From Chloroflexota bacterium (GTDB taxonomy: Bacteria > Chloroflexota > Limnocylindria > Limnocylindrales > CSP1-4): a stretch of 64,000 nt of DNA. Numbering within the stretch: position 1 is the stretch's first letter; every line of letters begins with the position of its first letter. Below the pieces are notes generated by a model. It did not search any database. It saw only the letters and a program-made list of their open reading frames with translations, and was not told the DNA's origin. The position numbers were made by a program, and so were the translations under genes. Shown piece after piece: positions 672 to 42,327 of this stretch. Location: NCBI GenBank assembly GCA_042408925.1, contig JBHOQO010000012.1, forward strand, positions 106 to 64,105. Reading direction: 5' to 3'.

Positions 672-2666
672 ATGGACCATCGACCGGGTCCTGCTAGGAT
701 GCCGCCCATGACGAGCGAAGTCCTGCCCGAGGTCATCGCCGAGCGCCCGACCGCCGTCGACCTGCCGGGTCGGAGCCCCTGGCTCCGCTTCGGCCTCGCG
801 TTCCTCATCGGGCTGCTCGTCGTCTTCGGCCTCGCCACCGCGGCCCTCTACGCCTACGAGCAGACGTACGCCGGGCGGATCCTCCCGGGCGTCCGGATCG
901 GGTCGGTCGACCTCTCGGGGCTCGACCCGGAGACGGCCGCCGCGCGTCTCGCCGCGGCCTACGCGCCCCTCGCCGGGGGCGAGATCCGTCTCGTTGCCGA
1001 CGGCGCGGAACGCCTCCTGCCCCTCGATCAGATCGGCCGGGGCCCGGACGTCGAGGCGATGGCCGCCGCAGCGATGGCGGTCGGCCGGAGCGGCTCGCCC
1101 TTCGAGCGGGCGATCATCGAGGTTCGAACCGCGGTCGCCGGGGTCGAGCTGGCCCCGCTCGTCCGCTACGACGCTGCCGCCCTCGAGCATCGCCTCGCGG
1201 CGACCCTGGCGAGCCTCGAGCGCCCTCCGCAGGATGCCGCGGTCCGAGACGGCGAGGCCGGGTTCGTCGTCGAGCCCGGCTACTACGGCTTGGCCGTCGA
1301 CGAGGCGGCGATCCTCGCCCGGGTTCGGGGGGCGCTCGCCGCCCCGTCGCCGATCGGGACGCTGACGATCGCGGTCGAGCGGACCTCGGTCCGCCCGGCG
1401 GTGACGACGATCGACGCCGAGATCGCCAAGACGCGGGCCGAGCGGATGGCCGCCGACCTCCTCGTCACGGCCGGGCCGGACCACTGGACGATCGACGGCT
1501 CGACGGTCCGGCGCTGGCTCCGCTTCGAAGTCACGAGCGACGGCCGCTACCTACCGGTCGTCGACACGGAGCAGGTCGCCCGGTCGCTCGGCGACCTGGC
1601 GAAGAAGGTCGCCCGCAAGCCGCAGGACGCGCGCTTCCTGACCGGCCGAAACGGGCAGGTCGTCGGCGTCGAGGCCGGGGTCGATGGTCGGGAGCTGGAC
1701 GTCGGCCCCACGGTCGAGCGGATCGTCGCGGCTCTGAACCGGCGGGGAGCCGAGGCGGCGGACGGGCCGGTCGAGCTCGCCGTCCGGAGCATCGCGCCGG
1801 CGCTGACGACGGAGGAAGCCGAGAAGGTCGCCCCGCAGATGACGAAGATCTCCCAGTGGACGACCTACTTCGAGATCAGCGAGCGGAACGGCTTCGGGGC
1901 CAACATCTGGATCCCGGCCCGGGACATCGACGGTCAGGTCGTCGGGCCGGGGGAGACCTTCGACTTCTGGAAGGCGCTCGGGCCGATCACGTACGAACGC
2001 GGCTACCGCGACGGCGGGGCGATCATCAACGGCAAGACCGAGCCGACCGGCGCCCTCGCCGGGGGCATCTGCTCGACGTCGACGACGCTCTTCAACGCCG
2101 CCCTCCGGGCCGGGTTCAAGATGGGGGCGCGCCGGAACCACTACTACTACATCTCCCGCTATCCCCTCGGGCTCGACGCCACCGTCTTCCAGAGCGCCTC
2201 GGGCTCGGTCCAGACGATGTCCTGGACGAACGACACCCCGTACCCGGTCCTCATCCGCGGCTACACGGGCCGCAGCGGCGGCCGGGGCTACGTGCGGTTC
2301 GAGCTCTGGAGCGTCCCGAACGGCCGGACGGTCAGCTTCACGAAGCCGATCGTCAAAAACGTCAAGAAGGCGACCGATACGGTCGAGTACACGAGCACGC
2401 TCCCGGCCGGGGTCCGGAAGCGGGTCGAGTACCCGGTCGACGGGATGGACGTCTGGGTCACCCGGACGGTCCGCGACCGCTCCGGCGCGATCATCCATCA
2501 GGAGACGTACTACTCCCACTACACCCGGATCACCGGGGTCGTCCTCGTCGGGACCGGCGGTTCGAAGTCGACGGGTGGCGGGGGCACGCCGGCCCCGAGC
2601 CCGACCCCGGCCCCCAGCCAGGAACCCGCCCCGAGCCCGACCCCGGCCCCCAGCCCCAACCCGTAG
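672..2666 (+). CDS. VanW-family protein with N-terminal TM anchor, peptidoglycan-binding-like repeats and C-terminal Pro-rich tail
   Basis: N-terminal TM helix; VanW core motifs (FDFWKALGP..GYRDGGAIINGKTEPTGALAGGICSTSTTLFNAALRAG); C-terminal PAPSPTPAPS repeats. Confidence 0.75.
   Translation: MDHRPGPARMPPMTSEVLPEVIAERPTAVDLPGRSPWLRFGLAFLIGLLVVFGLATAALYAYEQTYAGRILPGVRIGSVDLSGLDPETAAARLAAAYAPLAGGEIRLVADGAERLLPLDQIGRGPDVEAMAAAAMAVGRSGSPFERAIIEVRTAVAGVELAPLVRYDAAALEHRLAATLASLERPPQDAAVRDGEAGFVVEPGYYGLAVDEAAILARVRGALAAPSPIGTLTIAVERTSVRPAVTTIDAEIAKTRAERMAADLLVTAGPDHWTIDGSTVRRWLRFEVTSDGRYLPVVDTEQVARSLGDLAKKVARKPQDARFLTGRNGQVVGVEAGVDGRELDVGPTVERIVAALNRRGAEAADGPVELAVRSIAPALTTEEAEKVAPQMTKISQWTTYFEISERNGFGANIWIPARDIDGQVVGPGETFDFWKALGPITYERGYRDGGAIINGKTEPTGALAGGICSTSTTLFNAALRAGFKMGARRNHYYYISRYPLGLDATVFQSASGSVQTMSWTNDTPYPVLIRGYTGRSGGRGYVRFELWSVPNGRTVSFTKPIVKNVKKATDTVEYTSTLPAGVRKRVEYPVDGMDVWVTRTVRDRSGAIIHQETYYSHYTRITGVVLVGTGGSKSTGGGGTPAPSPTPAPSQEPAPSPTPAPSPNP
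2584..2664 (+). repeat. tandem 27-bp direct repeat encoding (PAPSPTPAPS)x2 in VanW-like C-terminus
   Basis: ccccgagcccgaccccggcccccagcc repeated twice within 2590-2660. Confidence 0.5.
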
Positions 2667-4542: not shown

Positions 4543-5247
4543 ATGGCGATCGCGACCCACCCAGCAGCCCTCCACCGACGCCGCCCGCCATTCGTCGCTC
4601 CGCGACCCACCGAGCGGTCCCGGCCTGCCCCGCACGCCCTCGTCGTGCACCACGCCGATGTCGTCCGGGCGGGCGTGGCGACCGTCCTCGCGTCGGGCGC
4701 TCACTGTGAGGTGACGAATGCCAGCTCGATCTTCGAGGCCCTGCGGATGGCGCAGATGCGCCATCCGCAGGTCGTCCTCTTCGACTACCCGCCGAACGAG
4801 GGAGCCGAGGCGTGTCGGCTGCTCGCGGGGCTCTGGCCGCGGCCGCGTCTGGTGGCCCTCGCCGGCAAGGCCAGTGACGTTTCGCCGGCAGAGGCGATCC
4901 GCGCCGGAGCGGATGCCGTCGTCGCGCTCGACAGCGTCAGCCGCGAGACGCTCGTCCTGCTCGTCGGCCGGGTCCTTGACGGGATGCGGCCGCTCGTCGC
5001 GGGCTTCGCGCAGGCCCCCCTGGAGGCCGAGCGGTGCGACGACGACCCGAAGGCCGCCCTGACCCCCCGCGAGCGCGAGATGCTGTACCTCATCGGTGAG
5101 GGGCTCTCGAACCGCGAGATCGCCCAGGCCCTCGTCCTGTCGGTCAAGACGGTCGAGACGCACCGGGCGAACCTCGCCCGCAAGCTCGGCATCCGCTCGC
5201 GAGCCGGCCTCATGCGGCTCGCCATCTCGGCCAACCCCGTCAGCTGA
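4543..5247 (+). CDS. LuxR/NarL-family response regulator with atypical receiver (acidic pair replaced by HH)
   Basis: C-terminal LuxR HTH (TPREREMLYLIGEGLSNREIAQALVLSVKTVETHRANLARKLG); receiver-like N-terminus VVHHADVVRAGV...VVLFDY. Confidence 0.65.
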   Translation: MAIATHPAALHRRRPPFVAPRPTERSRPAPHALVVHHADVVRAGVATVLASGAHCEVTNASSIFEALRMAQMRHPQVVLFDYPPNEGAEACRLLAGLWPRPRLVALAGKASDVSPAEAIRAGADAVVALDSVSRETLVLLVGRVLDGMRPLVAGFAQAPLEAERCDDDPKAALTPREREMLYLIGEGLSNREIAQALVLSVKTVETHRANLARKLGIRSRAGLMRLAISANPVS

Positions 5248-5288
5248 CGCGCGCGGGCCGACTGCCTACCCCCGAGCGCTGCCGCGCC

Positions 5289-5603
5289 ATGATCCCGCTC
5301 ACCCGCCCCGACGGCTCCTGTCTCCTCGTCAACCCCGACCGGATCGAGACGGTCGAGGAGACGCCGGACACCGTCATCACCCTCGCCGACGGGAAGAGGC
5401 TCCTCGTCCGGGAGCCGGCGGCGACCGTTGCCCAACGCTTCATCGGCTACAAGCGGGCGGTCCACGCCGGGGCGCGCTACGGCGGCCGGCGGCAGACCGA
5501 CCCGGAGGCCGTCGATGACCCGCTCCGGTACGGCCACCCGAACCGGCCGAACATCCGCTCGCTCGGCGAGACCGAGTCGTCAGCCCGGGAGACCGAGGGA
5601 TGA
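5289..5603 (+). CDS. flbD: flagellar protein FlbD
   Basis: MIPLTRPDGSCLLVNPDRIETVEETPDTVITLADGKRLLVRE matches FlbD family N-terminus; immediately upstream of motA. Confidence 0.8.
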   Translation: MIPLTRPDGSCLLVNPDRIETVEETPDTVITLADGKRLLVREPAATVAQRFIGYKRAVHAGARYGGRRQTDPEAVDDPLRYGHPNRPNIRSLGETESSARETEG

Positions 5604-6409
5604 TTGGCGTTCTCATCGGCGTCGTCGCCGTCATCGCGACGTTTGTCCTCAAGGGTGTCAGCCCGACCATCCTCATCAACCTGCCATCGATCATGATCGT
5701 CCTCGTCGGGACGGCGGGGGCAACGATCGCGTCCTTCGGCCTCGGTGAGTTCAAGAAGGCGCCGACGCTCCTGCGGCTGGCCCTCAGCCGTAGCCACTAC
5801 GACCTCCTCGGGATCCGCGACCAGCTCGTCGCGTTCGCCGAGCGGGCCCGCCGGGATGGCCTGCTGGCCCTCGATTCGGACCTCGACACGGTTCGCGATC
5901 CGTTCCTCCGCCGCGGCCTCCAGATGATCATCGACGGCCTCGAGCCCGAGACGGTCGAGACGGTGCTGGAGCTCGACACCGTCGCCCTCAAGGAGCGGCA
6001 CGCCCACGGGGCGACGATGTTCCAGATGATGGCCGGCTACGCGCCGACGTTCGGCATCCTCGGCGCGGTCATGGGCCTCATCGCCGTCATGGCCCACCTG
6101 TCGGAGCCCGAGAAGCTCGCCATGGGGATCCAGGTCGCCTTCATCGCCACGCTCATCGCCGTCGGGGTGGCGAACATCCTCTTCATGCCGGTCGCCGTGG
6201 CGCTCCGCGGGCGCTCGGCCGAGGAAGTCCGAGCCCGGGAGATGGCGCTCGCCGGCATCCTCGCCATCCAGGCCGGCGACAACCCGCGGATCGTCGCCCA
6301 GAAGCTCGACAGCTTCATCCCGCCGAAGCTCCTCGCCGCCGCCCGCGAGCGGAGGGCTCGCCTGGCCTCCGGCCTGGCCTCGGCGGAGCCGGCCGGGGAG
6401 GCAGCGTAA
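5600..6409 (+). CDS. motA: flagellar motor stator protein MotA
   Basis: 4-TM MotA/TolQ/ExbB topology, conserved GILGAVMGLI and cytoplasmic loop; overlaps flbD stop. Confidence 0.9.
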   Translation: MIGVLIGVVAVIATFVLKGVSPTILINLPSIMIVLVGTAGATIASFGLGEFKKAPTLLRLALSRSHYDLLGIRDQLVAFAERARRDGLLALDSDLDTVRDPFLRRGLQMIIDGLEPETVETVLELDTVALKERHAHGATMFQMMAGYAPTFGILGAVMGLIAVMAHLSEPEKLAMGIQVAFIATLIAVGVANILFMPVAVALRGRSAEEVRAREMALAGILAIQAGDNPRIVAQKLDSFIPPKLLAAARERRARLASGLASAEPAGEAA

Positions 6410-7224
6410 TGACTCGCCGTGGGTCCGCCGGCGACCGTGGCGGCGTTCACGCCGACGAGCGCTGGCTCGTCACGTACGCCGACATGCTCACGCTCCTCCT
6501 CGCGCTCTTCGTCACCCTCTACGCGCTGTCGGACACGGACATGCGGAAGTTCGCCGCCCTCGCCAAGAGTCTCGCCGCGGCCTTCAGCACCGACATCTTC
6601 AGCGGGCAGCGCGCGTTCACGATCACGAGCGGCCAGGAGTCGGTTCCCGACGTCGCCCAGTTCGACGCCGGGAACGGCCTGGTCTCCGACTACCGAACGA
6701 TCCAAGCCGCCGTCACCGACTACGTCGTCGAGCGCGGCCTCAACGGACAGGTCACGGTCGAGCCGGTCGCCGAGGGGATCGCGATCCGAATCTCGAGCTC
6801 GCTGCTCTTCCGTCGTGGCCGGGCGACGCTCGCTCCCGAGACGGTCGATGTCGTCGACCGCGTCGCTCAGGTCGTGCTCCCCCTGCCGAACGCGATCCGG
6901 ATCGAGGGCCACACCGACAACGTCCCGCCGGACGGCACCCTCTTCCGCGACAACTGGCAGCTCTCGACCGCGCGAGCCCTCGCGGTGCTCGACCGTTTCG
7001 TGGCCGACGGCATCGCCCCCCAGCGACTGTCCGCCGCCGGCTACGGCGAGTACCGCCCGATCAGCCCGAACGTCGACGAGGCGAGCCGGTCGAAGAACCG
7101 CCGGGTCGACATCCTCGTGCTCTATCCCGACGACCGGCGACCCGTGCCGGTCCCGTCGCCAGCCAAATCGTTCGACCCGATCGGCCTGCCGATCGAGCCA
7201 GAACTGCCAGGAGGACGACCGTGA
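6409..7224 (+). CDS. motB: flagellar motor protein MotB (OmpA-like)
   Basis: N-terminal TM with conserved Asp (TYADMLTLLLALF), C-terminal OmpA-like peptidoglycan-binding domain (NWQLSTARA..NRRVDI). Confidence 0.9.
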   Translation: MTRRGSAGDRGGVHADERWLVTYADMLTLLLALFVTLYALSDTDMRKFAALAKSLAAAFSTDIFSGQRAFTITSGQESVPDVAQFDAGNGLVSDYRTIQAAVTDYVVERGLNGQVTVEPVAEGIAIRISSSLLFRRGRATLAPETVDVVDRVAQVVLPLPNAIRIEGHTDNVPPDGTLFRDNWQLSTARALAVLDRFVADGIAPQRLSAAGYGEYRPISPNVDEASRSKNRRVDILVLYPDDRRPVPVPSPAKSFDPIGLPIEPELPGGRP

Positions 7225-7718
7225 AGCTGCCCCGCGGAAAACGCGCCATGGTCCTCCTCGGCCTGCCGATCGGTCTCGCCGCTGCGGCCGGGCTCGCCTT
7301 CACCCAGCTCGCCGTTGTGGGCGGAACCGAGCCGCGCGCGGTCCCTGATCCAGGTCCAGGTCAGCACGGCGCCATGCTGCCCCTCGAGAGTCGGATCATC
7401 AACCTGCCGGCCGGCGGACCCTTCCGATACGTGAAGATCGGGCTGACGATCGAGCTTCGCCCTGAGTCGGCCGGGTTCTACGACCTGACCGGTGAGGCGC
7501 GAGCGGCAGCCGAAGAGGAGATCGTCGCTGCCGCCTCGCGCTTCTTGCCGCTCCTCTACGACGCCGTCGGGTCGGTGGTCGCCGGGTCGAGCGGACCCGC
7601 CCTAGCGACGAGCGCCGGCCGGGCGGCCCTCAAGGCCGATCTCCTCGCGGCCGCCAGGCAGATCCTCGGCGAGCACGAGGTGCTCGCGGTCTACCTCACC
7701 GATCTCGTCATGCAGTAG
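7221..7718 (+). CDS. fliL: flagellar basal body-associated protein FliL
   Basis: single TM then FliL signature (INLPAGGPFRYVKIGLTIEL); GTGA overlap with motB. Confidence 0.8.
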   Translation: MKLPRGKRAMVLLGLPIGLAAAAGLAFTQLAVVGGTEPRAVPDPGPGQHGAMLPLESRIINLPAGGPFRYVKIGLTIELRPESAGFYDLTGEARAAAEEEIVAAASRFLPLLYDAVGSVVAGSSGPALATSAGRAALKADLLAAARQILGEHEVLAVYLTDLVMQ

Positions 7719-7728
7719 GGGTTCGACG

Positions 7729-8742
7729 ATGCTGTCGCAGGCAGAGATCGACACCCTCCTCGGGGCCATCGGCTCGGATGGGCCGACGCGCGACGTCGGG
7801 TCGCCCGCCTCGCCCGAGGTCTCGGCGCCCATCGGCGGCGGCGGCCGTGGTCGGCAGCGGACGGTTCGGCCATACGACTTCCGGCGGCCGGACAAGTTCT
7901 CCAAGGACCAACTGCGGACGCTCCAGGCCGTCCACGAGGACGTCGCCCGCCTCGTTGGTGGTCGACTCTCGGCGCGCCTTCGGTCCACCGTGGCCGTCAG
8001 TCTCGGGGCGACGGCTCAGATGGTCTTCGACGAGTTCGTCGCCGGCCTCACCCTGCCGACCCAGCTCGTCGTCGTCGAGGCCTCCGGCCTCGACGGACCG
8101 TTCCTCATCGACCTCGACCTCGACCTGGCGCTCGCCGCCATCGACCGCCTCCTCGGCGGGTCCGGGGCCCCGCCGCTCTCCCGCCGAGAGCCGACGTCCA
8201 TCGAGGACGCCCTCATCGACCGCCTCATCGAGGACATCGTGCCCGCCATCGGGGAGGGCTGGTCCCACCTCGCTGCCCTCGGCGTCCGCGTCGGCGAGAA
8301 GGCGCTGCGACCCGACCTCCTCCGGGTCGCCGCGCCCTCGGCCGTTACGGCTGTCCTGACGTTGCAGGTCCGTCTTGCGGGCCGGGGCGCGCCGCTTTCG
8401 ATCTGCTATCCCCACGACTCGCTCGCCCCGGTCCTCCCTCGCCTCTCGCCGACGGCCTGGTACGGCCAGTCGGGCCGGGGCAACGGAGCGCTCCGGGACG
8501 CCCTCACCGATACCCTCGGGTCGGTCGAGATCCCCGTCGCCGCCGTTCTCGGGGGAACCGCGCTGTCGGTCGAGCAGCTCGCCGACCTCGCCCCCGGCGA
8601 CGTCATTCGCCTCGACCAGCCGGCCGACGCGCCGATCGCCGTCTCGGTCATGGACCAGGCTCGCGCCTGGGGTCTTCCGGGCCGGGTCCGCGACCGGCTG
8701 GCCGTTCGGCTCGTCTCGCCCCTCGCTCCGCTGGAGGCCTGA
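7729..8742 (+). CDS. fliM: flagellar motor switch protein FliM
   Basis: N-terminal CheY-P-binding-like LSQAEIDTLL motif, FliM middle domain, C-terminal SpoA-like segment. Confidence 0.9.
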   Translation: MLSQAEIDTLLGAIGSDGPTRDVGSPASPEVSAPIGGGGRGRQRTVRPYDFRRPDKFSKDQLRTLQAVHEDVARLVGGRLSARLRSTVAVSLGATAQMVFDEFVAGLTLPTQLVVVEASGLDGPFLIDLDLDLALAAIDRLLGGSGAPPLSRREPTSIEDALIDRLIEDIVPAIGEGWSHLAALGVRVGEKALRPDLLRVAAPSAVTAVLTLQVRLAGRGAPLSICYPHDSLAPVLPRLSPTAWYGQSGRGNGALRDALTDTLGSVEIPVAAVLGGTALSVEQLADLAPGDVIRLDQPADAPIAVSVMDQARAWGLPGRVRDRLAVRLVSPLAPLEA

Positions 8743-8745
8743 ACC

Positions 8746-9741
8746 ATGACCTGGGAGTCGTTCCACTGGCGTTCCCTCGACGAACGGTCGCTCCCAGCCG
8801 CGGCACCGCTCGCCGAGGCGGCATCCCTCGTTCGCGACGCGATCCAAGGGGCGCTGGCGGCGCTGGCCGCTGGACCGGTGACCCTCACCGGTGTCGAGGT
8901 CGCAGAGCTCCGCCGGACGGAGCTCCCCGACCTGGCGCTTCCCCTCGCCAGCGTCGAGGTCGTCGGCGCCCCTCGCCGGCAGATCCTCGTCGCCGGCGAT
9001 CCCGCGGCCGAGATTGTCCTGGGCCATCAACCGGCCGGTCCGGCGGAGCTCGGCGGGCGAGTCCTCCGGGCCGTCGACGAGGCGATCGCCGCATTCGCCG
9101 GTGAGGGCCTGGGGCTCGGGGCGGCTGACGCGGCGACGATACCGCCGGACGCCGAGCTCGTCGCGGTGCGGATCGCGGTCGCCGGCGAAGGCGGCCTCGC
9201 CGGCCGACTCGTGTTCATCGGGGAGGCCGCCGCGGTCGGCGAGCTCGCCGCCCACGTCGCCGCCCTCCGCGCCCTGGGCGCGGCGTCTGAGGAGTCGGAG
9301 GCCAAACCCGGCGACGGATCGACCCCGTCCGGCAACGCAGCAGGACGCACGAGCGCCGAGGCGGCAGCGGCCGAGCCCGTTGATGCGCGCAAATCCGCGC
9401 CGACGATCCGGCCGGCGGTCTTCCCCGATCTTGGCCTCTCCGGCTCCGGGACACCCACCGCCACCGAGCCCGGTCGATCGATCGATCTCTTGCTCGGCGT
9501 CCAGCTCCAGGTGAGCGTCGAGATCGGCCGGACAAAGCTCCCGATCAGAGAGGTCCTCAACCTGGGACCCGGATCGATCGTCGAGCTCGACAAGCTCGCC
9601 GGCGAGAAGGCCGACATCCTCGTCAACGGCCACCCCGTCGCCCAGGGCGAGGTCGTCGTCGTGGACGAGAACTTCGGCGTCCGGATCACCGACGTCGTGT
9701 CGCGCCAGCGCCGGATCCTGTCAGCGGACGGCGCGCCATGA
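8746..9741 (+). CDS. fliN: flagellar motor switch protein FliN/FliY (long form)
   Basis: C-terminal SpoA/FliN domain ([57 protein letters not shown]). Confidence 0.85.
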
Positions 9742-10373
9742 GCGTCGACCTCTCGGTCCTCGGTCGGCTCGTTGCGCCGGCCGACCCATCGTCGAGCGGC
9801 CGGGATCTGAGGCCGGAGCGGCCGCGACGGATGGCCCATCGGGTCGGGCGCGGCCCGACCAGATCGACCATCCTTGCCCGGGGGTTCCTCCCGAGCGGGC
9901 GGGCCGCTCGCCTTGGCTGGCTCGCCGTCGGCGCGTCCGCCGTCTTCGGCCTCGCGATCGTCCTCGGCCGCTTCGACGGGCTCGGTGGAGCCGTCGAGCC
10001 GGCTCCGCTGGCGCAGCCCGGCCCGTCGGCCGAGGCCGCTGGTTGGCCGCCGCCGGCGAGCTCGGCGGTCACCATCGACCCACTCGACCTGGCGACGAAG
10101 TTCGCGCTCGTCGGGCTCCTCCTCTATGGCGGGCTCCGCCTCCTTCGCCGCTACGTAGCGCCCACGGCCGACCGCAACGGCCCGATCGTCGTTCTCGCCT
10201 CGCGGCCGCTCGGTGCCAAGGCCGCCCTCCATCTCGTCGCGGTCGGCGACCGGCGACTCCTCGTCGGCGAGTCGCCGAGCGGGCTCGTTGGCCTGACCGA
10301 GCTCGTGGCCGACGAGCTCGAGTCGGATCAGGTGCGCACCATCGAGTCGCAACGTCGGGAGGTCGGTCGGTGA
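9738..10373 (+). CDS. fliO: flagellar biosynthesis protein FliO
   Basis: small membrane protein with FliO-like segment ([33 protein letters not shown]); position between fliN and fliP. Confidence 0.6.
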
Positions 10374-11125
10374 GCCGTCGAGCGACGATCCTCGGGCTGC
10401 TGCTCCCCTTGGCCGTCGTTCTCGCCGGCTGCAGCGGCAACGGGGCGCCGTCGGTGAGCGTCCAGATCGGGGACGGGACGGCTCAGGGCGATGGTGGGAC
10501 GTTCGCCCTCTCGCTCCAGCTCCTCGTTGCCGTCACCGTCCTGGCGGTCGTGCCGGCCGTCCTGCTCATGGCCACGAGCTTCACCCGGATCGTCGTCGTC
10601 CTCTCCCTCCTCCGGAGCGCGATCGGGATCCCAAACCTACCGCCGAACCAGGTCCTGCTCGGTCTGGCCCTCTTTCTGACGCTTTTCGTCATGGCCCCGG
10701 TCTGAGGCGAGATCCAGCGCGAGGCGATCGAGCCGTACCTCGCCGGCCGGATCGACCAAGCGACCGCCCTGGCAGCCGCCACGGGGCCGCTCCGGACGTT
10801 CATGCTCAGCCAGACGAAGGAGAGCGACCTGGCCACCTTCGTCGATCTGGCGCGCACCCCGCGCCCGAGCACCCCGGCGGACGTGCCGCTCGAGGTCCTG
10901 GTGCCGGCCTTCGTCACGAGCGAGCTCCGGACGGCCTTCACGATGGGCTTCCTCCTCTTCGTCCCGTTTCTCGTCATCGACCTCATCGTCGCCTCGGCCC
11001 TCATGAGCATGGGGATGGTCATGGTCCCGCCGACCCAGATCGCGCTACCGTTCAAGCTCCTGCTGTTCGTCCTCGTCGACGGCTGGGTCCTCATCGTCGG
11101 CTCCCTCGTCCGCAGTTTCGGGTGA
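10370..11125 (+). pseudogene. fliP: flagellar export apparatus protein FliP, interrupted by an in-frame TGA at 10703-10705 (otherwise full-length and collinear with FliP homologues)
   Basis: GTG start overlapping fliO stop; two same-frame ORFs (10370-10705 and 10706/10802-11125) align without gap to FliP: ..[22 protein letters not shown].. vs E. coli ..LFLTFFIMSPVIDKIYVDAYQPF.. Confidence 0.75.
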
Positions 11126-11400
11126 AGACGATGACCCCGAGCGAGATCATCACCGTCCTCCAGCAGGCCCTCGTCGTCGCCCTCGTCGTCGGCGGGCCGA
11201 TCCTCGCCGTGACCATCGTCGTGGGCCTCGTCGTCTCCATCCTCCAGGCGGCGACGCAGGTCCAGGAGGCGACGTTGACCTTCGTGCCGAAGATCGGCGC
11301 CGTCGCCGTCCTCCTCGTCCTGTTCGGCCCGGCGATGCTCGGTGCCCTCCTCGACTTCACCCGGGCGGTGTTCCTCGCCGTGAGCGAGGTGGCGCGATGA
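11122..11400 (+). CDS. fliQ: flagellar export apparatus protein FliQ
   Basis: 89-aa two-TM protein, FliQ family pattern; follows fliP. Confidence 0.9.
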   Translation: MKTMTPSEIITVLQQALVVALVVGGPILAVTIVVGLVVSILQAATQVQEATLTFVPKIGAVAVLLVLFGPAMLGALLDFTRAVFLAVSEVAR

Positions 11401-12155
11401 CCGGCACCCTCAGCCTCCAGCTGTCCGGGGGCGAGGTGGCGACCCTCTTCTTGGTCCTCCTCCGCTGCACGGGGTTCGTCGTCGCCGCCCCGCTCCTCGG
11501 TCACCGAGCGGTGCCGGGACCCGTCAAGGCGGGCCTCGCCGCCGTTCTCGCCGTCGGTCTCGCCCGGACCGCGAGCATCGCCCCGAGCCCGGTTCCGTTC
11601 TGGCTCGCCGTGCCGTTCGAGCTGGTCGTGGGCCTCGCCCTTGGCTTCGTCGTCGGCCTGGGCTTCCATGCCGTCGAGAGCGTCGGGCGGCTCGTCTCGC
11701 TCCAGCTCGGCCTGTCGCTCGCGCCGGTCCTCGACCCCGTTCGGGGCGACACCGGCTCGGCCCTCGATCCGCTCTTCGCGATCCTCGCGGGCCTCCTCTT
11801 CTATGCCCTCGACCTCCATCTGGCGATGCTCGCCGCCCTCGGGGCCTCGTTCGAGCACCTCCCGCTCGGCGGTAGCTGGCCCGGCGGGATCGGGCAGGCG
11901 GCGGCCGGTCTGACCGCCGTGGCGCTGGAGCTCGGCGGTCGGATTGCCCTCCCCATCGCCCTCGTCTTCCTCATCGCGGAGCTCGCCGTCGCCCTCGTCG
12001 CCCGGGCGATCCCCCAGGTCAACGTCTTCTTCCTCGGCCTGCCGCTCAAGCTCCTCGCCGGGCTCGCGGTCCTCGTGGCTGCCCTGCCGCAGCTCGCGGC
12101 GAGCGCGGCGGCCGTCGGCCGGTACTTCGTGTCCGCCGCCGGAGCGATCCGATGA
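11397..12155 (+). CDS. fliR: flagellar export apparatus protein FliR
   Basis: ~250-aa polytopic membrane protein, FliR position and pattern; ATGA overlap with fliQ. Confidence 0.9.
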   Translation: MTGTLSLQLSGGEVATLFLVLLRCTGFVVAAPLLGHRAVPGPVKAGLAAVLAVGLARTASIAPSPVPFWLAVPFELVVGLALGFVVGLGFHAVESVGRLVSLQLGLSLAPVLDPVRGDTGSALDPLFAILAGLLFYALDLHLAMLAALGASFEHLPLGGSWPGGIGQAAAGLTAVALELGGRIALPIALVFLIAELAVALVARAIPQVNVFFLGLPLKLLAGLAVLVAALPQLAASAAAVGRYFVSAAGAIR

Positions 12156-13213
12156 GCGACCAGCGCACCGAAGCCCCTACCCCTCGCCGGATCGAAGAGG
12201 CCCGTCGGAAGGGCGAGCCGGTCGGCCGGAGTCAGGAGCTGACCATGGCGGCCACCCTCGGGACCGGGGTCCTCCTCCTCGGCGCGCTCCTGCCTGGGGC
12301 GGCCGCGACGCTCGGGGCGGCGGTGCGCATGTCCGTCGACCGTCTCGCCGCTCGACCCGATCCGATCGCGAGCCTTCGGGCCCTCGGCGACGGCCTCGGA
12401 CTGGGACTCGCCATCACGGCGCCGCTCGCGGGCGCCATCCTAGTCGCCGGGGTGCTCGCCAACCTCGCTGCGGGCGGCATCGTCGTCTCGACCGGCGCGG
12501 TGCGGTTCGAGTGGAACCGACTCAATCCCCTGACCGGCCTTCGCCGGATGGTCAACCGCGAAGCGCTCACCCGCCTCGGCATCGCCCTCGCCAAGCTCGG
12601 CGTCCTCGCTGCGGCGACCTGGCTCGTTCTCGCGGGCCGCCTCGAGGGTCTGATCGGGACGACGGGAGCCTCCGCCGAGGCGATCGCCGGCACGGCGGCC
12701 GGGGTGCTCTTCGAGCTTGGCCTGACGGTCACGATCCTCCTCGGCGTCGTCGCTGCGATCGATGCCGTCCTCGCTCGGCGTCGGGCGCTCGGGGCGCTGA
12801 AGATGACGAAGGACGAGGTTCGGCGCGAGGCGAAGGACACCGAGGGCGACCCGCTCCTCCGCGGGATCCGCCGCCGCCGCGCCCGGCAACTCGCTTTCGC
12901 CCGGATGATGGACGCCGTTCCGACGGCCGACGTCGTCGTCACGAACCCGGTCCGCCTTGCCGTCGCCCTCCGCTACGACCCGGCGACGATGCGGGCGCCG
13001 CGGATCGTCGCCAAGGGCCAGCGTCTCGTGGCCGAGCGGATCCGGGAGGTTGCCCGGCGGGCCGGGGTCCCGATCGTCGAGGATCGGCCGCTGGCACGGG
13101 CTCTCTTCCCGCGCCCGCTCGGCAGCGAGGTCCCGCCGCACCTCTACCGGGCCGTGGCCCGCGTCCTCGTCATCGTCGCCCGGGCGCGGGCCCTCGCAGG
13201 GAGGCCACGATGA
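12152..13213 (+). CDS. flhB: flagellar export switch protein FlhB
   Basis: N-terminal MSDQRTEAPTPRRIEEARRKG (FlhB hallmark), 4 TM, C-terminal domain with NP(V/T)x autocleavage-type motif. Confidence 0.9.
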   Translation: MSDQRTEAPTPRRIEEARRKGEPVGRSQELTMAATLGTGVLLLGALLPGAAATLGAAVRMSVDRLAARPDPIASLRALGDGLGLGLAITAPLAGAILVAGVLANLAAGGIVVSTGAVRFEWNRLNPLTGLRRMVNREALTRLGIALAKLGVLAAATWLVLAGRLEGLIGTTGASAEAIAGTAAGVLFELGLTVTILLGVVAAIDAVLARRRALGALKMTKDEVRREAKDTEGDPLLRGIRRRRARQLAFARMMDAVPTADVVVTNPVRLAVALRYDPATMRAPRIVAKGQRLVAERIREVARRAGVPIVEDRPLARALFPRPLGSEVPPHLYRAVARVLVIVARARALAGRPR

Positions 13214-15333
13214 GCGGCACCGCTGGGTCGATGCGCGGATCGCTGGGTGCCGCGGCACCCGGTGCCCAGCCCAGGACGCTCGGTGGTGTCCTGGGCCGAA
13301 GCGACTTCATCCTCGCCGCGGCCGTCGTGGCGATCGTGGCGATGATGATCGTCCCGCTCCCGCCCGTTCTCCTCGACGTCCTCATCATCCTCAACATCAC
13401 CTTCAGCGTCACGATCCTCCTCTTGACGCTCAACGTGCGCGAGCCGGTCGAGTTCGGTGCCTTCCCGCCGCTCCTTCTCATCGCCACCCTCTTTCGGCTC
13501 GCCCTCAACGTCTCTGCCTCGCGACTCGTCCTCCTCGAGGCCCACGCCGGCGAGGTCATCAACGCCTTCGGCAACGTCGTCGTCGGCGGCAACACCGTCG
13601 TCGGCATCGTCGTCTTCCTCATCCTCGTCGTCATCCAGTACGTCGTCGTCACGAACGGCGCGGGGCGGGTCTCGGAAGTGGCGGCGCGCTTCACCCTCGA
13701 CGCGATGCCCGGCAAGCAGATGTCCATCGATGCCGACCTCAACGCCGGGCTCATCACCGCCGAGGAGGCGCGCCTTCGCCGACGGGCGATCGAGCGGGAG
13801 GCCGACTTCTACGGGGCGATGGACGGGGCCTCGAAGTTCGTCAAGGGCGACGCCATCGCGGCCATGGTCATCATCGTCGTCAACATCGTCGGCGGCTTGA
13901 CGATCGGTCTCCTCCAGCACGGCTTCAGCCTCGACCAGGCGCTCCGGACGTACACGGTCCTCACCGTCGGCGACGGCCTCGTCAACGAGATCAGCGCCCT
14001 GCTCGTCTCGGTCGCCGCCGGGATCCTCGTGACCCGCGGCACCTCGGACCACGGCCTCGGAACCGACCTCGCCGAGCAGCTCCTCGCCCGACCGCGGCTG
14101 TTCGTCGTCGTCGGGGGCATCCTCGTCGTCGTCGGCCTCGTGCCGGGCTTCCCGACCCTCATCTTCCTCGCAGCCGGCCTCCTCGTGGCGAGCGCCGGCT
14201 GGATGATCGGCGGTGGCGCCGCTCCCCGACAGGCGGAGACGCCGACCCCGAGCCAGCCCGAGCCGGCGGCGCCGACCCCGGCGATCGAGGCCGTCCTCGA
14301 CACCCTCCGGGTCGAGCCGCTCGAGCTCGCCGTCGGCTACGGGCTCGTCGGCCTCATCGACGGCTCGGCCGGCAACCCGACGGGCGGCCTCGTCGAGCGG
14401 ATCGGCCTCATCCGCCGCCAGATCGCGACCGAACTCGGGCTCATCGTCCCGACGGTCCGCGTCCACGACGATCTCACCCTCGATGCCGACGCCTACACGA
14501 TCAGTCTCCGCGGCGCCGAGATCGCTCGCGGTCGGGTGGACCCGAGCCGACTCCTCGTCATCGACCCTCGTGGCGGGGAGATCGCCGTCGACGGAGTCCC
14601 GACGACCGACCCGGTCTTCGGGGTGCCGGCGGTCTGGATCAGCGTCACCGACCGGGAGCGGGCGGAAGCCCTCGGCTACACCGTCGTCGATGCGGCGTCG
14701 GTCGTGGCGACGCACCTGGCCGAGACGATCCGGCGGCACGCTGGCGAGATCCTCGGTCGGGCCGAGACGAACCGCCTCTTGGACCTGGTCCGATCCGAGG
14801 CGCCGGGGATCGTCGAGGAGATCGTCCCGAACCTCCTGAGCGTCGGCGAGATCGAGCGCATCCTCGCCGGACTGCTCCGCGAGCAGGTTCCGATCCGCGA
14901 CCTCGTCACGATCCTCGGCGCGGCCGCCGACGCCGCCCGGTCGACGAAGGAGCCCGCCCTCCTCGTCGAGGCAGTGCGGCACGCGCTCGCGCGCGTCATC
15001 TCGCTACGCCACCGCGGCCCGGACGGCTCGATCCACGCCGTGGCGGTCGCCCCGACGACCGATAGCCGCCTCGCCGAGGCGGTCGTCGTGGGCTCCGGCC
15101 GGATCAGCCTCGAGCTTGGTCCGAACGAGTCGCGGGCGCTCCTTGAGGCGATCGGCGGTGCGATCCGGATCCTGACGGAGGCCGGTCACCCACCGCTCCT
15201 GTTGTGCCGGACCCGGACCCGGGCCGCCGTCCGATCGCTCGTCGAGCGCCAGTTCCCGCAGCTTGCGGTCGTCGCCTACGAGGAGATCGTGCCGAGCGTG
15301 CCGGTCGTCGTCCATGGACAGGTCGAGATCTAG
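13210..15333 (+). CDS. flhA: flagellar export gate protein FlhA
   Basis: FHIPEP family: 8-TM N-domain, conserved GAMDGASKFVKGDAIA loop, large cytoplasmic C-domain; ATG at 13210 overlapping flhB stop. Confidence 0.9.
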   Translation: MSGTAGSMRGSLGAAAPGAQPRTLGGVLGRSDFILAAAVVAIVAMMIVPLPPVLLDVLIILNITFSVTILLLTLNVREPVEFGAFPPLLLIATLFRLALNVSASRLVLLEAHAGEVINAFGNVVVGGNTVVGIVVFLILVVIQYVVVTNGAGRVSEVAARFTLDAMPGKQMSIDADLNAGLITAEEARLRRRAIEREADFYGAMDGASKFVKGDAIAAMVIIVVNIVGGLTIGLLQHGFSLDQALRTYTVLTVGDGLVNEISALLVSVAAGILVTRGTSDHGLGTDLAEQLLARPRLFVVVGGILVVVGLVPGFPTLIFLAAGLLVASAGWMIGGGAAPRQAETPTPSQPEPAAPTPAIEAVLDTLRVEPLELAVGYGLVGLIDGSAGNPTGGLVERIGLIRRQIATELGLIVPTVRVHDDLTLDADAYTISLRGAEIARGRVDPSRLLVIDPRGGEIAVDGVPTTDPVFGVPAVWISVTDRERAEALGYTVVDAASVVATHLAETIRRHAGEILGRAETNRLLDLVRSEAPGIVEEIVPNLLSVGEIERILAGLLREQVPIRDLVTILGAAADAARSTKEPALLVEAVRHALARVISLRHRGPDGSIHAVAVAPTTDSRLAEAVVVGSGRISLELGPNESRALLEAIGGAIRILTEAGHPPLLLCRTRTRAAVRSLVERQFPQLAVVAYEEIVPSVPVVVHGQVEI

Positions 15334-21207: not shown

Positions 21208-21786
21208 TCAGCGACCCGCTTCGATCACGAACCAGCGCGACGCGTCGTCGCCCGAGAGGCCGTGACGCGACTCCAGGCCCCGGAACGTCTCCTCCCCGCT
21301 GACGTCCACCGGGAGCTGGACGACCGAGCTGAAGCCGACCTTGATGAGGAGGGCGACGAGATCGGCTGCAGACCAGGGCGGCAGTGCCTTGAGACGGTCG
21401 AGCGAGAGCACGCCCTGGAGGGCGAGCCGGCGGACCTCCGCTTCCGCGACCGCCCGATCGCGGCCGACGAGCCGGAGTCGTCCACCGGGCGCAAGCACCC
21501 GGGCCGCCTCGAGGACGAAGGCGAGAAGACCCTCGCCCAGCGTGTCGGGGAGCTCCCAGGCGTAGATGCGATCGACACTCCCGTCATCGAAGGGGAGGGC
21601 GAGGCGCAGATCCAGGTCGAGGTCGCCAACCTTCGGATCTTGGGAGACGCGGATCCATCCGGGCAGGCGGACCTCGCCCGGACCAAGGTGGAGTCGGAGC
21701 GAGCGTTGGCCGCGATAGCGATCCGCGGCTTCGAAGCCGGCGAGATAGCGGAGCGGGTCGAAGGCAGGCCTCGGGGACGTGGTCAT
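21208..21786 (-). CDS. class I SAM-dependent methyltransferase-like protein (last gene of glycosylation operon)
   Basis: MTase fold motifs (LHLGPGEV..; FDDGSVDRIYAW..; RVLAPGGRLRLV); ATG overlaps upstream gene stop (ATGA). Confidence 0.5.
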   Translation of the reverse strand: MTTSPRPAFDPLRYLAGFEAADRYRGQRSLRLHLGPGEVRLPGWIRVSQDPKVGDLDLDLRLALPFDDGSVDRIYAWELPDTLGEGLLAFVLEAARVLAPGGRLRLVGRDRAVAEAEVRRLALQGVLSLDRLKALPPWSAADLVALLIKVGFSSVVQLPVDVSGEETFRGLESRHGLSGDDASRWFVIEAGR

Positions 21787-23843
21787 GGGATCCTCCCGGC
21801 GCTGGTACGTTCGGCGACGGCAACCGTCACGTCGGAGGGAGCGCAGCCCCCCGCTCCGCCACGAAGCGTGACGACGGCTTCGACGTTGGCGAGACGGATG
21901 TCGAGCGCGAGCAGGCGACGCCAGCGCTCGGCCCCTGGATGACGACCGCGGAGCGCGGCGGCGGGATCGAAGCGGACGAACGACAGCCCGGCCGAGACGA
22001 GCTCGGTCCCCACCGGGATCGCCTCGGGGTCCGGCGGCCAGCCCCCGACGATACGACCGTCGGGTTCGGCGAGCCAGCCATAGACGGCCTCGAGCCCTTC
22101 GTCGACCGCGACCTCCAGGAGGAGAGCAATGTGTTCCGGCGTGTAGACGTCGCCCGGCGCGAGCGTGGCCACCCAGGCGCCTCGCGCGGCAGCGAGCCCA
22201 CGGTTCAGGGCGCGAGCCCAGCGGGCGAAGGGATCGGTATCGCTCCGGGGACGAAGGGGCACGCATCGCACCCGCGGATCGGCGATCGGCGGCGTGGGAG
22301 CCGTGGTGTCGACGACGGCGAGCACCTCCACCGCCCTGTGGAGGCCGGTCAGGATCGATCCGATCGACCGGTCGAGGGCCTCGCGCTCCGCATCCGCCTC
22401 CGACCTCGACGCCGTCTCGATGGCCGAGCCATGAACGCGTACGACCGGAATGATGACGCTGACGAGCCTAGGATCGGCCGACGGGCGCGCCCGGCAGACG
22501 CCGTCTTCGCCACGTCGCCGGGCGAGGAGCCGCTCGGCGGCCGCGTCGCGCTGCCAAACCCGCCGCCGGTGCTCGAGCGCCTCGCGGGCCGAGGACCGGA
22601 TGGCGGCCGCCGCCTCGGCGGGGACGGCCACGCTCCGCCCGAGGGCGCCGATTCCAGCGTGGGCGGCCGCCCACCAGAACGCGTCGGCCCACTCTGCCGC
22701 GCGCTGCCGGGCGTCGTACTCGGCGAGGACCCGCTCCCGGGCGCGACCGACGACGTCAGCCCGCAGGCCCGGCGACCGCGCCAGACGGAGGAGCGTCTCC
22801 AGCCATTCGGCCTTGTTCTTCACGAGGAAGCCATCCACCCCGTGGCGGATGACGTCGTACGGCCCACCGTCCATCGTCCGGGAGGCGATGGTCACGGCTC
22901 CGGCAAGGGAGTACTCGAGCCAATGGAGCTCCGACTTCGCCCGATCGAACTCGTCGCCCAGCAGGGGCGCCAGTCCGATGTCCGGCGCCGCTCGAACGAG
23001 CGCCGCCGCGAAGGCCGGGACGCCGATCACGTAATCGTGGACCTCGTCGACGATGGCCTCGAGCCGTGCTCGGGCCTCGGGATCGTCTGGCGCCCCGAGC
23101 CACACCCGCCAGAGGTCTGGGTGGCGGCGCTTCGCTTCGTCGACCGGGCCGCGACAGACCTCGTAGTAGTTGAGACGGGACAGGTTCCCGTAGTGGAGGA
23201 CGCGCGGGTTCCCGGGGAGGTTTGAATCTGGTGTCGTCGTCTCGTACCAGTGGGGGTCGACGGCGTTGCGGATCACCCGGACCCGGTCACTGTACGGCCA
23301 GACGCGGGCCGCCAGGATCGGCGTCGACACCGTCACCAGATCCGCTCGCCGCAGCATCGCCTCGATGAGCCCTCGCTCCGGTGCCAAGATCCGGCGGTTC
23401 CCGTTCCAGGCGGGGATCCGCAACAGGTCGTCATCGGTTTCGTAGACGAGGGCTCGGCCGGCCAGGAGGCGCGGCTCGGTCACCAGCGCCTCCCACATGG
23501 GGCGGAGGAACTCGTTCGCGGCCCGCTGGATCCGGTGACCGCTCGCTTGGGCATGCGCCATCGCCTCGCTGTGCCGCGGGGTTGCGAACCGACAGTCGAA
23601 GCAGAGATGATGCGTCTGTTCGGCCCGTCGAAGGACGAGGACGTCGGCCCACTCGATCGCCTGACGGTCGGCCCAGGCAAGGCGACCGCCGTCGACCGTC
23701 GTCTGGGGTGCGGCGACCGTCAGCCAGGACTTGAGCTCCACGCCGAGCTCCTCGAGATAGGGTTGGAACATCCAGGTCCGGTAGAAATCGCAGACGCCGA
23801 CGGGCGTGGAGTTGTAGACGAGGACGCGCAGCCGCCCGTTCAT
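21783..23843 (-). CDS. bidomain glycosyltransferase: N-terminal GT-B (GT4-like) + C-terminal GT-A (GT2-like) domain
   Basis: GT4-type C-half (GAVTIASRTMDGGPYDVIRHGVDGFLVKNKAEWLETLLRLARSP); GT2-type LVSVIIPVV..ALNRGLAAARGAWVATLAPGDVYTPEH; start MNGRL at 23843 overlapping upstream stop. Confidence 0.65.
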   Translation of the reverse strand: MNGRLRVLVYNSTPVGVCDFYRTWMFQPYLEELGVELKSWLTVAAPQTTVDGGRLAWADRQAIEWADVLVLRRAEQTHHLCFDCRFATPRHSEAMAHAQASGHRIQRAANEFLRPMWEALVTEPRLLAGRALVYETDDDLLRIPAWNGNRRILAPERGLIEAMLRRADLVTVSTPILAARVWPYSDRVRVIRNAVDPHWYETTTPDSNLPGNPRVLHYGNLSRLNYYEVCRGPVDEAKRRHPDLWRVWLGAPDDPEARARLEAIVDEVHDYVIGVPAFAAALVRAAPDIGLAPLLGDEFDRAKSELHWLEYSLAGAVTIASRTMDGGPYDVIRHGVDGFLVKNKAEWLETLLRLARSPGLRADVVGRARERVLAEYDARQRAAEWADAFWWAAAHAGIGALGRSVAVPAEAAAAIRSSAREALEHRRRVWQRDAAAERLLARRRGEDGVCRARPSADPRLVSVIIPVVRVHGSAIETASRSEADAEREALDRSIGSILTGLHRAVEVLAVVDTTAPTPPIADPRVRCVPLRPRSDTDPFARWARALNRGLAAARGAWVATLAPGDVYTPEHIALLLEVAVDEGLEAVYGWLAEPDGRIVGGWPPDPEAIPVGTELVSAGLSFVRFDPAAALRGRHPGAERWRRLLALDIRLANVEAVVTLRGGAGGCAPSDVTVAVAERTSAGRIP

Positions 23844-24973
23844 GCGCCGATTTCCGAAGCGAGCGGCCGAGTGGTTAGCGCGGGACCGCCGGCGAGATGG
23901 AAGAGGCGTACCACCTGCTCGAAGAAGCGAGTGCGCTGGCTCCGGATCCAGCGTCGGTAGTCGTCGAACGCCCTGCTCGCGCCGGGATCGTCGAGGCACC
24001 AGGCGATCCGCGCGACCGCCAGATCGATGTTCGCATCGGGGACCTTGAACAGATCGGGGATCGGGAGGTCCTCGGCGAACGCCGCGGCCCCCTGGCGGCC
24101 GGTCACGACGCAGCAGCCGGCGAGCGCTGCTTCGCGAGGCAGCCGGTCCATGCCTGGGTGCGGGCCGAAGTCGATGTAGACCCGACAGGTGGCCAGGAGC
24201 GCCGCCACCCCGGCAGCATCCAGTCCGGCGATGGGCACCCACTCCGCCTCGACGCCCAGCGCGAGACTGCGCTGGATGATCTGTATCGTCGTCTCGAACC
24301 CCTTCTTTGGATTGAAGGCGACCCGGCGCCGCCTCGGTGTCTCGGTCGTGGGGGCGAAATGCGCGGCCGCTAGATAGTCCCCGAGCGGCTCGCCAGCCGT
24401 GCCGTGGACGGCCAGGTAGGCTCGGGCGTAGGCCGACTGATAGAGGTGGACGGGCGCCCGCCGGGGAGCCGGACGCTGAAAGAAGCGGCCGAGGCCCGAG
24501 ACGAGGTTGTTGTCGACGCTCAACCACCAAAGGCCGACGCGGGCGGCGACGAACTCGTCGACGGCGCAGCTCCAAACCTCCGGGAGAATGATGACCGTGT
24601 CGCCGTCGTCCGGGAGCGGCGCCCGCCAGAGCGGCACGCGATAGTGGCGGTAGGCATCCGGGATCGTTGCGGTCGTAACCGACTCCGCAAATGCTCGCCC
24701 GGGGGCCGGCGCCAGATACGCCATCGCCGCGTCGGCGCCGAGTCCAACGAGCGCGTCGACGAGCTGATGGAGTGCTTCGGGCCCGCCCGTGACGCTCTCG
24801 GCGGGGCACGTCACGATCACCCGCTGGTGGGCCTGGAGCGCGAGCGGGGAGGGGCCCGGTTCCGTTCTCCTGGCGGTCGGAGGCTCACCGGGCCGGCGCC
24901 CCGTCGTCCGCTTGGGCGGGCGGGGGAGTAGGATCGCGGGACGGGCGTGGCGCCGCTCTCGCCGATGCTTCAC
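23840..24973 (-). CDS. hypothetical protein, probable GT-B-fold glycosyltransferase; N-terminal extent uncertain
   Basis: C-terminal half resembles GT-B nucleotide-sugar-binding half (..AALLATCRVYIDFGPHPGMDRLPREAALAGCCVVTGRQG..EDLPIP..); ATGA couplings at both ends. Confidence 0.4.
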   Translation of the reverse strand: MKHRRERRHARPAILLPRPPKRTTGRRPGEPPTARRTEPGPSPLALQAHQRVIVTCPAESVTGGPEALHQLVDALVGLGADAAMAYLAPAPGRAFAESVTTATIPDAYRHYRVPLWRAPLPDDGDTVIILPEVWSCAVDEFVAARVGLWWLSVDNNLVSGLGRFFQRPAPRRAPVHLYQSAYARAYLAVHGTAGEPLGDYLAAAHFAPTTETPRRRRVAFNPKKGFETTIQIIQRSLALGVEAEWVPIAGLDAAGVAALLATCRVYIDFGPHPGMDRLPREAALAGCCVVTGRQGAAAFAEDLPIPDLFKVPDANIDLAVARIAWCLDDPGASRAFDDYRRWIRSQRTRFFEQVVRLFHLAGGPALTTRPLASEIGA

Positions 24974-26022
24974 GAGAAGAGCTCCAGCCAGGTCAGCATT
25001 CCCTGGCGCAGACGATCGAAGTACTCACCGTCGAGCGGCAGGCGCTCGGCGAGCTCCTTGTAGGCGCCGCTTACGGTCGTCGCGTCCAGCCGGACCGAGT
25101 CGACCGCCCGCCAGAACGTCTCGTTCGCCTCGATCCCGGCTGCCTCCTTCCTGAGGTTCGCGAAGACGTTGCTCGCTCGCCGGTGCTCGACGGTAGGCAG
25201 CCCGGAGACCATCGCCAGGCCGAGGTGGTCGGCGACCCGCTTGGCCAGAACCCCGGCCCAGATGTCGTCGAACCGATCGAAGGGCCAGCCGCGGCCCATG
25301 AGGGGGAACCACATCGCCGGCGCGAACTCGGCGCGGAAGGCGAGGTTCATGCCGCTCATCGGGAAGTAGGTCCCACGGGGGATGACCTGGACCGCCTGCG
25401 GCCGCTCGAGGCGGAGGTCGGCATGCAAGAGCTGGGTCGGTGCGTCCAGATCCGGGATTCCTTCCCAGAGGCCGTGACTGACGACGACCGGCGCGGCGTC
25501 CCGAATGCCGTAGGGGAAGCCGCGGGTGTAGAACGCGCAGACCGGTTGCCAGCCCAACGTCACGCGTCGCTGGAGGTTGGCGACATGGGTCGCCAGGAAC
25601 GGTGCCGAGCCGGGATAGCAGTCGTCGTCGATCGTTACGATGACGTCGGCCCCGGACTGCCAGGCCTTCCAATAGCCGAAGTTGCGGATGGCCGCATTGT
25701 GGCGCGGGATGATCCAGGATCGGGATCCGAGCTCCCGGTCGATCTCCGCCCAGGAGTAGTGCTCGATCGTCCAGTTCCGTGGGAGCTCGATCTGGCGCTC
25801 GGGGTGGTCCTCGCAGACGATGACGTCGCAGGCGCCGAGCTCCTCTCGCCAGTCGTCGAGGAACGCGAGGTCCCGGATCGTCGGGATGACGACCGCCACC
25901 CTGGGCGACTGATCGCGGGTGCTGCCTCGAGGCGCCAGATCTGCCTTCGGCTGCTGCCTGGAATCGTCGGGTGGCGTCGCGAGAGCTGATTCTCCCGCGA
26001 TCGGCGGCGCGTTCGGCGACAT
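24970..26022 (-). CDS. reversibly glycosylated polypeptide / UDP-L-arabinopyranose mutase family (GT75) homologue
   Basis: collinear similarity to plant RGP/UAM: VVIPTIRDLAFLDDW, DDDCY (DxD), GFPYGIRDAAPVVVSHGLWEGIPDLDAPTQL, PRGTYFPMSGMNLAF, DRFDDIWAG, DHLGL..GLP..H..ASNVFANLRKE, YFDRL..GMLTWLE; GAGGAG RBS 5 nt upstream of ATG at 26022. Confidence 0.75.
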   Translation of the reverse strand: MSPNAPPIAGESALATPPDDSRQQPKADLAPRGSTRDQSPRVAVVIPTIRDLAFLDDWREELGACDVIVCEDHPERQIELPRNWTIEHYSWAEIDRELGSRSWIIPRHNAAIRNFGYWKAWQSGADVIVTIDDDCYPGSAPFLATHVANLQRRVTLGWQPVCAFYTRGFPYGIRDAAPVVVSHGLWEGIPDLDAPTQLLHADLRLERPQAVQVIPRGTYFPMSGMNLAFRAEFAPAMWFPLMGRGWPFDRFDDIWAGVLAKRVADHLGLAMVSGLPTVEHRRASNVFANLRKEAAGIEANETFWRAVDSVRLDATTVSGAYKELAERLPLDGEYFDRLRQGMLTWLELFS

Positions 26023-38138: not shown

Positions 38139-38587
38139 GCGCCGACCGACTGGCGACCGTTCTCCGCCTCCGCCGGCTCGAGGAGCACCGGGCCCGACTC
38201 GCGCTCGCGCGGGCGCTCGGCGACCACGACGCCGCTCGCCGCCGACTTGCAGTGGCTCGGGCCGAACAGGCGGCCGCCACGGCCGGACTCCGATCGCTTC
38301 TGGAGGGTCGAGTCCCGATCGCTGAGGTGGCCGCGCGCACCGCGGCAGTCGAGGTCGGCGAGCGGAATCGGGCGGTGGCCGAGGCGAAGGTCGAGGCGGC
38401 GCAGCGAGTGGTGGCCGAGGCTCGCGAGGCGCTCGCCACGGCGATCCGTCGTCGGAACGCCGTCGAGCGGCTCCGCCAACGGCGCCTGGCCGAACGGCGC
38501 CTGGCCGTTGAGCGGCGGTCCGAGCGCGAGCTCACCGAGATCGCCCTCGTTCGCCACGCGCGAGCCATCGCTGAGCGGATGGGTTGA
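38135..38587 (+). CDS. fliJ: flagellar export protein FliJ
   Basis: 150-aa coiled-coil, position after fliI, Arg/Glu/Ala-rich FliJ-like. Confidence 0.7.
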   Translation: MSADRLATVLRLRRLEEHRARLALARALGDHDAARRRLAVARAEQAAATAGLRSLLEGRVPIAEVAARTAAVEVGERNRAVAEAKVEAAQRVVAEAREALATAIRRRNAVERLRQRRLAERRLAVERRSERELTEIALVRHARAIAERMG

Positions 38588-41791: not shown

Positions 41792-41803
41792 GGAGGACAC
41801 AGC

Positions 41804-42274: not shown

Positions 42275-42327
42275 GCCGATCCATTCACGTCACGACCGGC
42301 GCAGGTCGTGAGCCACCACTGAAGGAG

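Follow-up and report, generated by a model that had tools for sequence, protein, structure and literature searches.

A private in-frame TGA in fliP of a high-G+C Chloroflexota bacterium is probably a young nonsense allele

Premature stops in genes of the flagellar type III export apparatus do not always mean non-motility, because Bordetella pertussis, in which a stop in flhA is found in all annotated genomes, can nevertheless be motile (PMC6520453). Also, UGA codons can be read through, and a value of ~6% has been reported for a reporter of Bacillus subtilis (summarised in PMC7918605); the in-frame stops that this work treats as conserved each occur in at least two species. Moreover, reassignment of UGA to Trp has been described, including a case with a tRNA-Trp(CCA) that carries a 4-bp anticodon stem, and in those genomes UGA is a sense codon throughout (PMC13092985). 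For FliP itself, the comparison is provided by the Salmonella protein of the solved export-gate structures (PDB codes: 6f2d and 6r69).

Here, a premature stop in fliP is described from a stretch of 64,000 nucleotides of a Chloroflexota bacterium (the window), which has a G+C content of 72%. Codon usage over the whole window gives 57 predicted genes, and the neighbors of fliP were assigned by Pfam. The gene, its parts and its polymorphic sites are the following.

10370 to 11125, plus strand: fliP, with a GTG start, 251 sense codons, one internal TGA and a terminal TGA (translation and Pfam).
10703 to 10705, plus strand: the in-frame TGA, codon 112 of fliP, which precedes GEIQREAIEPY.
10370 to 10705, plus strand: truncated FliP as encoded, 111 amino acids, with a lipobox-like signal peptide and the first membrane-helix pair.
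10706 to 11125, plus strand: the part of fliP after the stop, 139 codons, with the periplasmic domain, the second helix pair and the Met-rich loop ALMSMGMVMV.
10398, plus strand: the second polymorphic site of fliP, T (Leu18) in the window and in contigs L082 and L087, C (Pro) in contig L001 only.

The preliminary description of this DNA had reported an in-frame TGA in a fliP that is otherwise full length and collinear with its homologs, and both points are borne out. The TGA appears on translation, and the protein with X at the stop matches Pfam family PF00813 over positions 2 to 191 of 191 (E = 1.2e-77) in one stretch that spans the TGA, with a score of 260.6 bits against a curated cut-off of 26.9. 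Because this match runs unbroken across the TGA, the two halves correspond to one collinear gene and not to a chance pair of open reading frames. A comparison with Salmonella FliP is also ungapped, with residues 39 to 250 of the window protein aligned to residues 32 to 243 (E 3e-71) and the part past the stop aligned to residues 105 to 243 of the solved structures. The stop had been placed at the Ile of the motif MSPV-I-DKIY, and the alignment with the Salmonella structure (PDB code: 6f2d) indeed puts it at Ile105. The window gene encodes, as in Salmonella, each of the four helices as well as the Met-rich loop. The differences from the Salmonella protein are a lipobox-like N terminus (LAGC), a position 112 that is Trp in the clade instead of Ile105, and the stop carried by the window record.

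The uninterrupted full-length frame expected of the FliP family is absent from the window, where fliP has TGA at codon 112, and is present in sister contigs, which encode an intact protein of 251 amino acids. The window protein is 99% identical to the intact 251-residue proteins P0001 and P0121. In the cluster look-up, the fragment of 111 amino acids is on record once (P0122), on a 116,801-bp NCBI contig that is presumably the window's own record. Since this product is recorded from an NCBI contig, the TGA belongs to the deposited sequence. At the N terminus of the protein (residues 1-24, window positions 10370-10440), Cys21 is invariant across the window protein and the 16 relatives aligned with it, and it sits in a lipobox-like L/V-A/G-G/A-C motif, of which LAGC is the form in the window. 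This suggests a signal peptide of the lipoprotein type; for enterobacterial FliP, a plain cleaved signal peptide is described.

The surroundings of fliP correspond to the context expected of the family, being the Pfam assignments of the neighbors in the operon order fliO-fliP-fliQ-fliR-flhB-flhA.

9738 to 10373, plus strand: fliO (Pfam FliO), directly upstream of fliP, with its own TGA stop (10371 to 10373) overlapping the fliP start.
11131 to 11400, plus strand: fliQ (Pfam), starting 5 nt past the fliP stop.
11397 to 12155, plus strand: fliR, intact (Pfam and gene calls on L082 and L001).
12152 to 13213, plus strand: flhB, intact (Pfam and gene calls on L082 and L001).
13210 to 15333, plus strand: flhA, intact (Pfam and gene calls on L082 and L001).

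The GTG start of fliP and the stop of fliO overlap as GTGA. The operon belongs to a larger flagellar region, which begins with flbD, motA, motB, fliL, fliM and fliN, followed by fliO, fliP, fliQ, fliR, flhB and flhA. Then come a sigma factor, a rod gene, flgM, flgK, flgL and fliW, next a glycosyltransferase block, flagellin, fliS and fliD, further on rod genes, fliE, fliF, fliG, fliH, fliI and fliJ, and last an M23/SLT hydrolase, a rod gene, a 540-residue protein without a Pfam match, flgD and flgE. For ~35 flagellar genes other than fliP, the Pfam profiles are covered essentially end to end, which agrees, for all the others tested, with the earlier statement that the rest of the flagellar genes are intact. 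No frameshift or other broken gene is detected among the ~57 predicted genes of the window. Also, decay of the flagellar regulon, in the form of several lesions or degraded partner genes, is not observed in the window, where the fliP lesion is single.

Other features of the window are of a different kind. At the fliN position (8746-9741, plus strand), the encoded protein has 331 amino acids, and its match to the FliN C-terminal domain is confined to the final ~70 residues; the long N-terminal part, rich in Ala, has no Pfam match. Between fliW and the flagellin gene, four genes on the minus strand (21208-25899) encode a protein with a weak methyltransferase match, a 686-residue protein with several glycosyltransferase domains, a 377-residue protein without a Pfam match, and a protein that matches PF03214 ('reversibly glycosylated polypeptide'; E 4.5e-54), a family known mostly from plants. 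This block may be a flagellin glycosylation island. The open reading frame of 540 amino acids without a Pfam match (40169-41791, plus strand) lies between a rod-protein gene and flgD, the usual place of the hook-length regulator fliK, and holds 5 of the 26 strain differences described below. Directly after flgE, a protein of 424 amino acids (44239-45513, plus strand) gives weak, sub-threshold beta-propeller matches, and the ring genes flgH and flgI are not seen within the window. On the minus strand (51728-56404), a conserved cluster is formed by tmRNA, smpB, an S41/PDZ CtpB-like protease, ftsX and ftsE, the tmRNA being a full-length match of 101 bits with the tag GNRQSALALAA.

Regarding the origin of the stop, position 10705 is A in the window and G in three independently assembled contigs of the same population, where the codon is TGG (Trp). 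The contig L082 (run ERR15087770, 8,883 bp) is equal to window positions 4754-13636 at 8,882 of 8,883 bases, with 10705 as the sole difference. Likewise, L087 (SRR24490441, 1,365 bp) is equal to positions 9581-10945 save 10705, and L001 (SRR24490440, 1,963 bp), which encodes P0001, shows two differences over positions 9981-11943, 10705 and 10398. The window allele at 10398 is not private, being common to L082 and L087. At the protein level, the six closest FliP homologs (82-99% identity) all have Trp at the stop column; Trp also occupies it in the next relatives (84-88% protein identity), and the DNA of L002 and L003 reads TGG. Among the best 120 homologs, the column holds W in 44, L in 37, F in 25, I in 11 and V in 3. 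The nearest FliP proteins come from metagenome-assembled genomes of Chloroflexota / Candidatus Limnocylindrales, and a scan of GTDB representatives gives only relatives of at most 88% identity.

Only one record carries the A allele, and the three other assemblies spanning the site lack it. A search of JGI metagenome contigs with an exact 27-mer, A or G being allowed at the site, gave 0 matches, and the FliP fragments of 111 and 107 amino acids have no exact match in the contig index; exact look-ups with flhA, flagellin, fliI and a 488-residue protein (58111-59577) also gave no matches. Because the sister contigs and the closest relatives carry TGG or Trp, the stop is a private and very recent change, reached in one step by a G-to-A transition from TGG to TGA, which is the origin that the preliminary description had put forward. 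As for flhA of B. pertussis, there is one premature stop in a core gene of flagellar type III export and the gene set is otherwise complete. However, the B. pertussis stop is fixed, whereas that of fliP occurs in a single record, with a sense codon in three sister assemblies.

A comparison with further contigs points to real strain diversity in the source population. L085 differs from the window at 26 of 8,834 bases, 13 differences being synonymous and 13 not, and 13 of the 26 are clustered in fliF; L086 differs at 7 of 1,669 bases and L088 at 4 of 2,558. In two other stretches, the comparators diverge from the window by 0.16-0.4%. Wherever two comparators overlap (34663-36331 and 37719-40276), one of them alone carries each difference, and the other agrees with the window. 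This diversity makes a genuine private SNP plausible. Over the ~7.5 kb covered by at least two comparators, the nonsense change is the only private allele of the window. Among the substitutions possible in the window genes, 2.1% make a stop (2.75% for G:C>A:T transitions). Then, that the sole private allele is a nonsense one (~2-3% if random) is unusual for a random mutation, and equally so for a random error.

The contigs of run ERR15087770 show a contrast of their own, since they are identical to the window at 8,882 of 8,883 bases in the fliL-flhB stretch and differ at 26 of 8,834 in the fliF-flgD stretch (34138-42971). Within fliF (34270-34924), 13 differences fall in 655 bp, 7 of them changing the amino acid. 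Such a mosaic suggests that strains co-exist, with recombination or a mixing of assembly paths, and that a segment of FliF evolves fast.

TGA is the normal terminator of this organism. It ends 41 of the 57 predicted genes (TAG ends 14 and TAA 2), start-stop overlaps of the type ATGA or GTGA are numerous, and the genes for which TGA had been described as a genuine stop, fliO (10371-10373), fliH (36774) and flgM (17631), do end with it. Six pairs of adjacent open stretches in the same frame are separated by a single stop in the window, and fliP alone is one gene cut in two; the other five pairs are separate genes, fliM and fliN, flgL and fliW, flagellin and fliS, flgE and the propeller protein, and ftsE and ftsX. 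After the genuine TGA ends of the window, G is the commonest fourth base (15 of 40), and the fliP stop is also TGA-G.

Signals of recoding around the stop were not detected. The 63 nt from 10703 to 10765 fold at -23.1 kcal/mol, with z = -0.82 against shuffled sequences, so that no distinct downstream RNA structure is apparent there. Rfam at E <= 10 gives only noise over 10500-10950, and over the whole window only the tmRNA. No tRNA-Sec or suppressor tRNA is present in the window, where the ARAGORN calls are limited to the tmRNA and a doubtful tRNA-Ser(cga), and the genes for tRNA-Trp and RF2 are not found within it. The stop is not conserved in any ortholog, the codon being TGG in the three contigs of 99.9-100% identity and in L002 and L003. 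The fliP TGA therefore offers no evidence of programmed recoding or of a new recoding mechanism. As for the tRNA-Ser(cga) call (1075-1141, plus strand), it lies inside a VanW-domain gene (699-2666), and Rfam reports no tRNA there at the gathering threshold. With 67 nt, it is short for a tRNA-Ser and is probably a false positive.

We consider it rather probable that the stop is a genuine and very young loss-of-function allele of fliP, and this reading is favored over a consensus error because strain SNPs are common in the population and the rest of the consensus looks clean. A G-to-A transition at 10705 would have converted the Trp112 codon from TGG to TGA in the strain or population behind the record, so recently that the rest of the operon is unchanged. 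Translation would end past residue 111, and the resulting fragment would keep the signal peptide and the first of the two helix pairs but lack the second pair, the Met-rich loop and the periplasmic domain, all of which are needed for the FliP5-FliQ4-FliR1 export gate. Such a FliP fragment is unable to form the export gate. The allele should then abolish flagellar protein export and motility, making fliP a nascent pseudogene, and the expression of the tightly packed downstream genes fliQ-fliR-flhB-flhA may also drop. The comparisons establish the substitution, its ancestral state and its restriction to this record, the intact surroundings, and TGA as the normal stop codon; we infer the phenotype and that base 10705 is real rather than miscalled. 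Counting against a real allele, no other flagellar gene shows decay, so that a non-motile way of life has no independent sign in its favor.

A sequencing, assembly or polishing error, where the organism has TGG and the A was miscalled inside the run TGGGG, is less probable than a real allele and is the strongest of its rivals. Every other assembly covering 10705 has G, L082 being otherwise identical over 8.9 kb, the A allele comes from a single record whose operon has no other damage, and the G run around the site (CTGGGGC) is of the sort in which miscalls occur on some platforms. On the other hand, the consensus looks clean, without frameshifts or broken genes among the ~57 predicted, only ~2% of random substitution errors would make a stop, and the strain SNPs observed here (0.1-0.4%) far exceed the usual rates of consensus error. 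Among the options offered by the preliminary description, an error and a recent inactivating mutation both stand and are inseparable by sequence alone, whereas a dedicated readthrough site is unsupported, given that the stop is unconserved, no stimulatory structure accompanies it and TGA-G is the commonest genuine context.

It is improbable, although less so than the other forms of decoding, that the TGA is real but leaky, with tRNA-Trp (anticodon CCA) occasionally reading UGA so that some cells still flagellate. UGA is the leakiest stop in Escherichia coli, Salmonella and B. subtilis, with Trp inserted (PMC7918605). As in those bacteria, the fliP stop is UGA and near-cognate decoding would restore the native protein, since the ancestral codon is Trp and each readthrough event would yield wild-type FliP; moreover, only five FliP copies are needed per basal body and the frame past the TGA is perfectly intact. 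However, an intact downstream frame is equally expected of a change one mutation old, the stop is unconserved, the structure has z = -0.82 with no Rfam match, and TGA-G is the commonest genuine terminator context. Unlike the stops analysed in PMC7918605, that of fliP is unshared, and nothing marks the site as leakier than other TGA-G stops. A generic, low-level leak at UGA is conceivable, and nothing at the fliP site argues for more than this background. An extension of this idea, that the TGA allele is kept in a subpopulation where low Trp readthrough gives rare, stochastic flagellation as a translational bet-hedging of motility, seems more doubtful still.

Selenocysteine, genome-wide reassignment of UGA, or a split FliP made by re-initiation have, taken together, a nearly negligible probability, the bare presence of an in-frame TGA being the main point in their favor. 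Selenocysteine is rejected because there is no SECIS-like hairpin, Rfam match or tRNA-Sec, and the column holds W, L, F, I or V and never Cys. A reading of UGA as sense (codes 4 and 25) is also rejected: as in the reassigned genomes (PMC13092985), UGA would be read as Trp, but unlike them, this 72% G+C window has TGA as the main stop (41 of 57 genes) and a single in-frame TGA, no other window gene containing one. For re-initiation, the mutation does create GAGG (10704-10707), which an in-frame ATC (10712-10714) closely follows. Nonetheless, an ATC start with a 4-nt spacer is very poor, and the earliest in-frame ATG, GTG or TTG past the stop is at 10802, 33 codons downstream, so that most of the periplasmic domain would go; this possibility is rejected too.

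In sum, the stop in the well-known gene fliP amounts to a nonsense lesion of one nucleotide and of an ordinary kind, or else to a miscall, and it belongs to none of the recoding classes of which the defining features were tested. The main consequence is for annotation, where the fliP of this record deserves a flag as pseudogene or possible error, and where the window record alone should not be used to call the organism motile or non-motile. Natural loss of motility commonly begins with such lesions, which makes this one modestly interesting. A real allele would show flagellar loss caught at a very early stage, in a lineage of Chloroflexota that is uncultured and high in G+C.
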